A model generated the notes under the pieces. The model was not told the origin of the DNA. It saw only the letters and a program-made list of their open reading frames with translations, and searched no databases. DNA of 34,139 bases. Source: Chloroflexota bacterium (lineage in GTDB: Bacteria; Chloroflexota; Anaerolineae; B4-G1; SLSP01). The DNA is taken from the NCBI GenBank assembly GCA_009908585.1, contig JAAAOZ010000333.1, positions 1 to 34,139 of the forward strand, written 5' to 3'. This document shows positions 33,831-33,997 of this stretch, piece by piece. Within the stretch, counting starts at the first letter, position 1. The number at the start of each line of letters is the position of its first letter. The translations under genes and the position numbers were made by a program.

Positions 33831-33883
33831 GCCTAACATGTTATTATCCCGCGATATGGCGGCATAAAACAGCGCCTAAAACC
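33831..33883 (-). other. attI-like junction of platform copy 2
   Basis: The two platform copies stay identical down to ...ATAATAACATGTT, then diverge (AGGC versus CCGG); this copy reads GTTAGGC (GTTRRRY). Confidence 0.5.
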
Positions 33884-33912
33884 ATTATACGTTCAAAATC
33901 CCCATCATCCAA
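33884..33912 (-). promoter_or_regulatory. Pc-like promoter of cassette locus 2
   Basis: TTGGAT (33912-33907), 17-nt spacer, TATAAT (33889-33884) on the minus strand. Confidence 0.6.
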
Positions 33913-33945
33913 GAACTCCTCCCTGCATAATGACCTAGAAACCTG

Positions 33946-33997
33946 GGTATTACTGAGTAATACCGATGATGAACGCCCGGTATGACTGAGTAATACC
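33946..33997. promoter_or_regulatory. Operator pair of platform copy 2
   Basis: GGTATTACTGAGTAATACC (33946-33964) and GGTATGACTGAGTAATACC (33979-33997). Confidence 0.6.

Follow-up and report, generated by a model that had tools for sequence, protein, structure and literature searches.

Candidate integrase-less integron platforms on a mobile element of probable Chloroflexota origin

Two platform copies and their cassette arrays

The stretch of contig JAAAOZ010000333.1 that was analysed, 34,139 nucleotides referred to here as the window, carries two integron-like arrays of gene cassettes. Each array lies on the minus strand, begins behind a copy of the same short platform and ends in a copy of the same terminator-bearing distal module. 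The platform copies and their arrays are designated A1 (copy 1) and A2 (copy 2), and L-numbers designate related loci that were fetched. Both platforms follow the 3' end of a SLOG-like gene and are composed of the following parts.

1973..1945, minus strand: intrinsic terminator of the SLOG-like gene, copy 1 (terminator scan)
1862-1884 and 1831-1849, no strand: two palindromes of copy 1, candidate regulator-binding sites
1797..1769, minus strand: putative cassette promoter of copy 1, with TTGGAT at 1797..1792, a 17-nt spacer and TATAAT at 1774..1769
1768..1645, minus strand: leader and attI-like region of copy 1, with the core 12-mer TAATAACATG|TT at 1656..1645
34060..34139, minus strand: 3' end of the copy 2 SLOG-like gene with its terminator, 34088..34060 (scan and alignment)
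33977-33999 and 33946-33964, no strand: two palindromes of copy 2, counterparts of the copy 1 pair
33912..33835, minus strand: putative promoter, leader and attI-like core of copy 2 (-35 at 33912..33907, -10 at 33889..33884, core at 33846..33835)

In a self-BLASTN of the window, the two copies (1645-2022 and 33835-34137) are paralogous at 94-97% identity, with 93.8% over the 276 bp that align 1747-2022 with 33862-34137 and 97.2% between 1645-1680 and 33835-33870. This is somewhat higher than the roughly 90% that a first-pass annotation, made from the sequence alone, had given for 1645-2030 and 33835-34139. Between the two aligned blocks lies a 66-bp segment (1681-1746) that is present in copy 1 and in L002 (3050-3115) and is deleted from the short leader of copy 2; it is bounded by the direct repeat GCATAAAAC on the plus strand, also given as GTTTTATGC. 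The segment carries extra core-like motifs (TCGGGW, ACAACATGA and GTTATG, as TCGGGW..AACATG-like repeats) that bear a likeness to the accessory integrase-binding repeats of attI1. Upstream of the core there are also GTTAT/ATAAC-like repeats, both direct and inverted, with at most some resemblance to the multi-site layout of attI1.

The leader of each copy ends in ...GGGATAATAACATGTT, the core letters being also given as TAATAACATGTT. Identity between the copies stops exactly at GTT (1647-1645 and 33837-33835), as had been claimed from the sequence, and continues as CCGGCGG in copy 1 and AGGCAGC in copy 2. The crossover G is at 1647 in copy 1, followed by TT at 1646-1645, and at 33837 in copy 2, again followed by TT. 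At the other end, platform-specific sequence starts ~35 nt downstream of the terminator at 1973..1945, and an alignment of copy 1 with a platform-less site in L001 diverges after ...CGACGCGC. The stop codon of the second SLOG-like gene is placed at 34074..34072 by alignment with copy 1, and the gene runs off the window edge; the intrinsic terminators that had been noted behind the SLOG-like gene are found in both copies.

The TTGGAT-N17-TATAAT element is positioned and oriented as a putative outward promoter upstream of the attI-like core. The earlier claim of a promoter stands in so far as the element is present in both copies with a perfect -10 hexamer, whilst the -35 hexamer matches only 3/6 consensus positions and falls below the threshold of the promoter scan, which for this reason did not list it. 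A stretch of ~39 nt that begins in the spacer (GATTTTGAACG), spans the -10 and takes in the first 22 leader nucleotides is 100% identical in A1, A2 and L002, whereas the neighbouring 3' end of the SLOG-like gene has several substitutions. The two palindromes that had been described in each copy are likewise present: that at 1831-1849 and 33946-33964 is a perfect 9+1+9 and that at 1862-1884 and 33977-33999 is an 11+1+11 with a 91% match. In copy 1 their centres, 33 bp from each other, precede the putative transcription start by ~78 and ~111 nt, and within the window the palindromes are confined to the two platforms, against a chance expectation of 0 matches. This position is more typical of activator sites. 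The palindromes may regulate the platform, the putative regulator-bound sequence being GGTATTACTCAGTAATACC.

Behind the platforms lie different low-GC cassettes, in agreement with the first reading of the locus. The DNA between platform and distal flank has a GC content of 38-49%, compared with 55-73% in the backbone, and holds five open reading frames (ORFs), all co-oriented with the putative promoter.

1646..935, minus strand: cassette A1-1, starting TTCCGGCGGC; ORF 1587..1018 (189 aa, 43% GC) with an N-terminal hydrophobic segment
934..137, minus strand: cassette A1-2; ORF 886..266 (206 aa, 38% GC, membrane-like); attC 264..135, 130 nt
136..1, minus strand: distal module of array 1, a decayed attC-like remnant (...GCGGCCGCCACGCCATCATCC|TTAGCCTGG) and a terminator at 35..10, running off the window edge
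33836..32622, minus strand: cassette A2-1, starting TTAGGCAGC and ending ...TTTTGGG|TTAGAT; ORF 33781..32795 (328 aa, lipoprotein-like)
32621..32300, minus strand: cassette A2-2; ORF 32592..32389; attC of 61-66 nt, GCCTAAC...GTTGGGC
32299..31560, minus strand: cassette A2-3; ORF 32266..31700 (188 aa, membrane-anchored); attC 31685..31552, 134 nt
31559..31408, minus strand: distal module of array 2, 16 nt (31559..31544) followed by the shared flank with a terminator at 31442..31417

The attC sites of these cassettes were sought with a covariance model, R1, which was built from attCs outside the window only (four from L035, one from L005 and one from L002), stands in for IntegronFinder's own attC model and was run over the whole window, on both strands and with filters off. 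The six external sites fold as a long imperfect hairpin in which 17 of the 24 predicted pairs show compensatory changes (RNAalifold). R1 matches 32357..32292 (43.5 bits, E=8e-10), 31685..31552 (39.9 bits, E=7e-9) and 264..135 (26 bits, E=3e-5). All three matches lie within the two arrays, on the strand of the cassette ORFs, and the next best has E=0.35; an attC model, proposed in the first-pass annotation as the check on its integron reading, thus scores in both loci and nowhere else in the window. A strict search for RYYYAAC...GTTRRRY hairpins returned one textbook attC, at 32294-32354. The R'' box is canonical at 31685.. (GCCCAAC) and at 264.. (GCCTAAC), the terminal R' boxes are degenerate (GTCGGTC in A2, GTTCATC in A1), and the bottom-strand folds have two single-base bulges in one arm. 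The attC of A2-3 is homologous to those of L002, L005 and L035, with compensatory changes in the stem. Cassette A1-1 ends in a 39-nt hairpin (965..927) followed by G|TTGGGCGG, its 3' boundary being inferred from the motif GTTGGGCGG common to the A2 and L005 boundaries.

A genome scan with a long-attC pattern gave 43 matches, of which only L035 was real. This contig of an Anaerolineae metagenome-assembled genome (MAG; JBJYXQ010000173) is a pure cassette array of the same long attC family, and one of its attCs is 91% identical to the terminal attC of L002.

PADLOC and Pfam searches of the cassette proteins found no function apart from the zinc knuckles of A2-2, a 67-aa protein with three tandem CCHC knuckles (Pfam zf-CCHC) whose gene contains a perfect 66-bp direct repeat (32392-32457 and 32524-32589). 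The A1-1 and A2-1 proteins are distantly related through a C-terminal domain that both contain (28% identity over 168 aa, E=4e-12); their N-termini are hydrophobic or lipoprotein-like, and they have relatives in Ca. Promineofilum and Anaerolineales MAGs. Loci of distant cassette-protein homologues (L007-L012, L056-L060) are ordinary chromosomal, defence or diversity-generating retroelement contexts, with no integrase and no platform. Among them, L009, L010 (~7500-13270) and L012 (3720-10244), all from Anaerolineales, encode NACHT/KAP-NTPase proteins with FGE-sulfatase domains together with distant homologues of the cassette proteins; in L009 and L010 the NACHT/KAP-NTPase proteins stand beside retroelement genes (RVT_1, bAvd).

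One docking point joined to four first cassettes

Cassette A2-1 is found in other arrays, bounded in the same way. Positions 32618-33837 of the window match microbial-mat metagenome contigs (L003-L006) at 98.2% identity over 1221 bp, with a 98%-identical protein, and the identity is delimited by two GTT sites, G|TTAGGC at its start and GGG|TTAG at its end. In L005 the start of the match, ...CCGCGCCGG|TTAGGCAGC, adjoins the end of another attC (R1 match at L005 37-171), and the match finishes ...TTTTGGGG|TTAG, after which a different cassette follows. The homology of the platform (33835-33870) and that of the cassette (32618-33837) overlap by exactly the GTT triplet at 33835-33837, an overlap that is the signature of recombination within G|TT. 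The same ORF thus occurs in different arrays as a G|TT-bounded unit, its 3' site being one that folds unconvincingly, and the GTT break first noticed in the window holds as a cassette boundary, since A2-1 begins at the same G|TTAGGC in unrelated mat arrays. Homologues of the A2-1 protein are labelled Ca. Promineofilum or Anaerolineales by their sources.

On the platform side, the 12-mer TAATAACATG|TT stands at four junctions (A1, A2, L002 and a second platform in L001) and occurs nowhere else in the window or in the 60 fetched loci. The first cassettes are joined as GTT|AGGCAGC in A2, GTT|CCGGCGG in A1, GTT|GGGCGGG in L002 and GTT|AGCACGC in the second platform of L001, that is, four different first cassettes at an identical nucleotide. 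The site is attI-like in that its 5' side up to G|TT is conserved and its 3' side is occupied by variable cassettes. The reuse of the core, together with the conservation of promoter and leader, argues for a dedicated attI-like site and not a chance secondary one. Cassette content, invariance of which would have spoken against the integron proposal, differs among all four platforms.

The comparison rests on few loci: only three other contigs with relatives of the SLOG-like gene and of the DUF4326 gene that precedes it were found. L002 (5.9 kb) encodes, in order, HTH_17, a leader, DUF4326, the SLOG-like gene, the platform, one cassette with a 647-aa product and the distal module. Platform and cassette meet there at ...AACATG|TTGGGCGGG, and a deletion between the palindromes has left only one of them. 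In L001, of which 21 kb of a 497-kb contig were examined, no platform follows the gene pair; homology with the window ends ~30 nt past the terminator and resumes with sequence found after array 2. A further platform in L001 was found through an R1 attC match.

L001 4500-5660, strand not stated: platform of a second type, behind a RadC-ArdC-SWIM operon

This second platform has different palindromes (TTATGCAGCAGAATTGCTGCATAA) and a different place in the element, whilst homology to A1 and L002 extends over its final ~65 nt, of which the terminal 12 are identical. The core is followed by AGCACGCTC, low-GC cassette DNA, an attC and then the same distal module and terminator. The position in the window that matches this platform (~22184-22410) is empty. 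The idea that the platform is itself a cassette was rejected, as neither a GTT nor an attC marks its upstream boundary with L001, where R1 likewise gives no match. Patterns for the promoter, the attI core and the distal module found nothing in viral and metagenome collections, BLASTN of window positions 1-4200 against plasmid and phage collections gave no match, and DUF4326-based scans of genome and metagenome collections returned no relatives.

The arrays also resume identity at their far ends, where a shared distal flank with the same terminator had been reported. Positions 1-136 and 31408-31543 are 95.6% identical by self-BLASTN, with the terminators at 35..10 and 31442..31417, and the homology of the array 2 module to L002 runs on to ~31367. 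In L001, that locus's own array is followed by the same module, joined at G|TTACGCCATCATCC. In the microbial-mat array L003, a 30-nt block of the module (59-88) recurs as the right end of the final attC, and because this block, GCGGCCGCCACGCCATCATCC|TTAGCCTGG, is shared with an attC end, the flank looks like a decayed cassette remnant joined to a terminator. Only the A1 terminal junction, GATCG|TTCATCG, is canonical (L', 4-nt spacer, G|TT, flank); the R' boxes of A2 and L002 were read by homology to a complete L035 site (...GGCTTATGCCAACC|GTTGAAC). To view the flank as the plain right half of an attI was considered and set aside as not clean, given the attC-like remnant shared with L003 and the 11-17 extra nucleotides at A2 and L002. 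The 26-nt terminator hairpin of the module (GCGCCCTGGAGAGATCCAGGGCGCTG) has a third, inverted copy at 26090-26115, beside restriction-modification genes (26279-29553).

Recombinase search and neighbouring genes

A Pfam scan of 60 ORFs of the window, which include every ORF of at least 250 aa except three alternative frames over two adenine-poor genes, detected neither a tyrosine or serine recombinase nor a transposase or HUH domain; this bears out the reported absence of a tyrosine recombinase. The Pfam annotations precomputed for L001 (21 kb) and L002 (5.9 kb), 27 kb together, list no recombinase either. The first-pass annotation had allowed that an ordinary intI might adjoin the arrays, and no intI is present beside the attI side or within 15-30 kb on the visible sides. 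The position next to the attI-like core is taken by the terminator of the SLOG-like gene.

The remainder of the window looks plasmid-like or like an integrative and conjugative element (ICE), judging by a backbone that encodes a ParM-like actin, two FtsK/SpoIIIE-type ATPases, ArdC-N, RadC, a DdrB-like protein, two SNase-LTD nucleases and a restriction-modification pair. The two nuclease genes, of the SNase plus lamin-tail (secreted) type, lie on the minus strand at 13685-14830 and 29745-31199 and are 78-86% identical at the DNA level; one of them is directly downstream of array 2. Scans of the window for Rfam families and tRNAs found nothing. Upstream of platform copy 1 are two genes and, before these and elsewhere, a recurrent leader.

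3100..2648, minus strand: DUF4326 gene (Pfam PF14216, 3.2e-16), upstream of platform copy 1
2655..1957, minus strand: SLOG/DprA-like gene, 232 aa, its start overlapping the DUF4326 stop (GTGGGTAG)
3060-3420, 21740-22200 and 25430-25990, minus strand: copies of a GC-rich leader (in L001 at 300-850, 5700-6220 and 9540-9900)

The description of this pair as DUF4326/SLOG stands for the first gene, whose Pfam match scores 60.2 bits against a cut-off of 25 and whose orthologues in L001 and L002 are 89% identical. The SLOG label is tentative: neither Pfam nor the PDB gave a sequence match to the protein itself, although 344 homologues are present in the representative library. A family profile of 24 members gives a weak match to the DprA structure 3UQZ (E=0.011) in the region of the GxR...GxD Rossmann motif, and one homologue (P0137, 61% identical) matches the Pfam YAcAr SLOG family at 5e-4 and 20.2 bits, below the cut-off of 28.2. 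The coding strand of the two genes (1957-3100) is indeed adenine-poor, at 6% A, and because of this all three forward frames are open. Gene calls in L001 and L002 run through mixed frames (P0001, P0002), and both contigs are frameshifted relative to the window. Avoidance of A/T-containing palindromic restriction sites is one unverified idea for the adenine depletion.

A GC-rich leader of 250-500 nt precedes three operons: the DUF4326/SLOG pair, a small-ORF operon ending with the DdrB-like gene, and RadC-ArdC-SWIM. Its invariant blocks, TAGCACACGGCGCAAGGC ... GCAAAAACC/GGTTTTTGC ... GCCTTGCC-CTCGTGTGC, close a long hairpin around an inner hairpin with compensatory changes. Nothing in Rfam matches this sequence, which may function as a structured RNA leader or else as the single-stranded-DNA promoter of a leading region.

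Competing readings and implications

We consider it probable, at roughly 60%, that the two arrays are integron platforms without an integrase of their own, carried on a mobile element and serviced in trans by the IntI of the host, which is probably a Chloroflexota bacterium of Anaerolineae type. Each platform would be composed of a regulated promoter with two upstream palindromes, a leader carrying the attI-like core TAATAACATG|TT and a distal terminator module. An integron integrase encoded elsewhere, most likely in a chromosomal integron of the host, would insert cassettes at G|TT by attI x attC recombination and excise them again, perhaps still in the present day. Cassettes co-oriented with the platform promoter would be read until the distal terminator, which would insulate the genes downstream, and the plasmid- or ICE-like element would in this way pick up host cassettes and move them. 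The features that the sequences appear to share with IntI substrates are the R''/R' boxes, the bulged and structure-conserved hairpins and the G|TT boundaries. Chloroflexi are reported to have complete integrons, and it has already been proposed that arrays without an integrase are serviced by one that the genome encodes elsewhere (PMC4889954).

A number of observations weigh against this reading. Only three of the five inter-cassette sites score as attC: the middle site of A1 is the 39-nt mini-hairpin at 965..927, which R1 misses, and at the 3' end of A2-1 no convincing attC hairpin is found, the fold there being no better than that of shuffled sequence (z ~0.2-0.8). In A1 the first cassette opens with TTCCGG, at odds with TTRRRY. 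Neither A2 nor L002 has a G|TT at its terminal junction (R' is GTCGGTC and GTGTAGC, respectively), and between the degenerate R' and the shared flank both carry 11-17 extra nucleotides (..GTAGCGACA.., also ..GGTAGCGACA..; window 31544-31559, L002 5269-5279) that are absent from A1. The -35 hexamer, at 3/6, is weak. An empty platform was not found in any collection searched, and only four platform instances are at hand, in three assemblies. Since no integron integrase was found in the window or in the annotated parts of L001 and L002, the step in trans is pure inference; the anatomy of the loci, the presence of attC sites, the mobility of cassettes with G|TT ends and the use of one docking point by four first cassettes are, by comparison, well established.

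A further question is whether the window holds two platforms or one. Both of its ends fall within a repeat, with homology running from position 1 and as far as 34137 of 34139, so the repeat is larger than the part that is visible. The window may therefore represent one locus with two alleles, on a circular element of ~31.4-32.2 kb or in a concatenated assembly, with a single platform per element. This is a real possibility, albeit one to which we give less than even odds. In its support, the window length is not a round number, the upstream side of A1 is syntenic with L002 (HTH_17, leader, DUF4326, SLOG, module), the downstream side of A2 is syntenic with L001 (SLOG, a homologue of window 31376-31235, restriction-modification genes), and the A1 upstream and A2 downstream contexts, when joined, form one coherent locus. 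Against it, the flanks differ by 4-6%, so that A1 and A2 are not the same molecule read twice, and the distance between them about equals that of each to L002. The final bases of the window, too, are different from copy 1, which means that the two paths do not merge at the end of the contig, and the element has other internal paralogues (two SNase-LTD copies, three leaders). Two alleles would alter the number of platforms and not their nature, leaving the integron reading unaffected, and the arrays would then be direct evidence of cassette turnover within a population.

The remaining alternatives concern how the cassettes came to lie where they do. In the first, the arrays are inert, being a fossil CALIN (a cluster of attC sites that has no integron integrase) or an attG-type secondary-site insertion at a chance GTT, and the differences between them arose by homologous exchange between the flanks. 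Integron integrases do insert cassettes at genomic GWT sites near promoters, from which they are expressed (bioRxiv 10.1101/2022.09.11.507474), many small CALINs and SALINs (single attC sites lacking integron integrases) may arise in that way (bioRxiv 10.1101/2022.09.11.507474; PMC4889954), and the degenerate sites (the terminal R' boxes, the A1 middle site and the A2-1 3' end) would suit such a history. We nevertheless regard it as unlikely, given that the same 12-mer and ~65 nt of upstream homology recur in two platform types at different positions and with different palindromes, that four different first cassettes meet the core at an identical nucleotide and that the region adjacent to the core is the best-conserved part of the platform. 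Homologous exchange offers no escape, as a donor with the same flanks would itself still require site-specific insertion at the core.

The first-pass annotation had also raised a different recombination machinery, centred on DUF4326/SLOG, and more generally an unannotated protein of the element could move cassettes without IntI. No integrase is in view, the pair stands directly upstream of the platform in three of the five pair-bearing loci (A1, A2 and L002), and a DprA-like protein, weak as that similarity is, would bind single-stranded DNA, the form in which attC folds. The distribution of the genes does not support this proposal: the pair occurs without a downstream platform in L001 and L061, and the second platform of L001 is ~5 kb from the pair, behind other genes, which makes the pair unlikely as the recombination machinery. 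The same attC family and the same cassette are moreover present in arrays of contigs on which these genes are not seen, a search for nuclease or recombinase domains was negative for both proteins, and the boundaries, R''/R' boxes and bulged hairpins are those of IntI substrates. Machinery encoded by the element thus appears very improbable. We give equally little credence to an ordinary integron whose intI lies just outside the window, which would take advantage of the window cutting array 1 on its left side and array 2 on its right. A classical intI abuts attI on the side away from the cassettes, and that position is held by the 3' end of the SLOG-like gene in A1, A2 and L002 and by the RadC-ArdC-SWIM operon at the second platform of L001. 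No integrase is found within 32 kb upstream of the A1 attI or 31 kb downstream of array 2, nor, around the second platform of L001, within 4.5 kb on its upstream or 15 kb on its downstream side.

The loci were also compared with known integron-related structures. As complete integrons the loci fail for want of an intI within ~4 kb, although the attC component is present in the three R1 matches (E <=3e-5). Array 2, with attCs 600 bp apart, corresponds to a CALIN (at least two attCs within 4 kb and no intI nearby), whilst array 1 alone would be a SALIN or a borderline CALIN because it has one scoring attC (264..135) and a 39-nt degenerate hairpin. With CALINs, as IntegronFinder defines them (Cury et al. 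2016), the arrays share attC sites, co-oriented promoterless ORFs and the lack of a nearby intI. CALINs are defined without an attI or promoter and are usually seen as integron debris or secondary-site insertions; unlike them, the platforms have a conserved attI-like core, a conserved putative promoter that appears to be regulated and a conserved terminator module, and the whole unit recurs in related mobile elements with different cassettes.

In class 1 mobile integrons, a 5' conserved segment (5'-CS) with the promoter Pc and attI1 is followed by variable cassettes and a 3'-CS, and intI1-deleted derivatives rely on IntI1 in trans. The platforms resemble this layout in their putative outward promoter, an attI-like site ending G|TT, a conserved 3' segment and a transmissible element. 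They differ in having no intI or recognizable remnant of it, a promoter outside an integrase gene, an unrelated attI sequence, no known resistance genes, a terminator in place of qacEdelta1/sul1 as the 3' segment, and a host phylum that is probably Chloroflexota. As at attG sites and SALINs, cassettes lie outside a complete integron and are joined at G|TT downstream of a resident promoter, putative in the platforms, that could express them. However, attG sites are scattered and sequence-poor, with a GWT and CRGM motif for IntI1 (Loot et al., bioRxiv 10.1101/2022.09.11.507474), in contrast to the one extended conserved sequence that is reused here by four first cassettes in two platform types. 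The closest likeness in attC sequence is to Anaerolineae/Chloroflexota chromosomal arrays such as L035, in which the same family of 130-150-nt GC-rich attCs flanks low-GC ORFs; such arrays consist of cassettes only, with no platform, promoter, terminator module or integrase link visible.

The conventional view is that an integron consists of an integrase with its own attI, and CALINs, although common, are treated as debris or accidents. If the present reading is confirmed, a capture site can evolve and spread apart from its enzyme, which would provide one concrete origin of CALINs. The function of the integron would then be split between a host that supplies the enzyme and a mobile element that supplies the platform, and a transmissible element could carry the cassettes of sedentary chromosomal integrons out of their host. 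Chloroflexota, the probable phylum of the host, are abundant in wastewater and in microbial mats, and their integrons have hardly been studied; tests of a Chloroflexota IntI would find defined substrates in the conserved 12-mer core and in the long attC family. More tentatively, and with somewhat more doubt than belief, these loci may represent a family of integrase-less docking platforms on Chloroflexota mobile elements, which would draw on the IntI of their hosts to sample the cassettes there, place their expression under the control of the element and ferry them from cell to cell.

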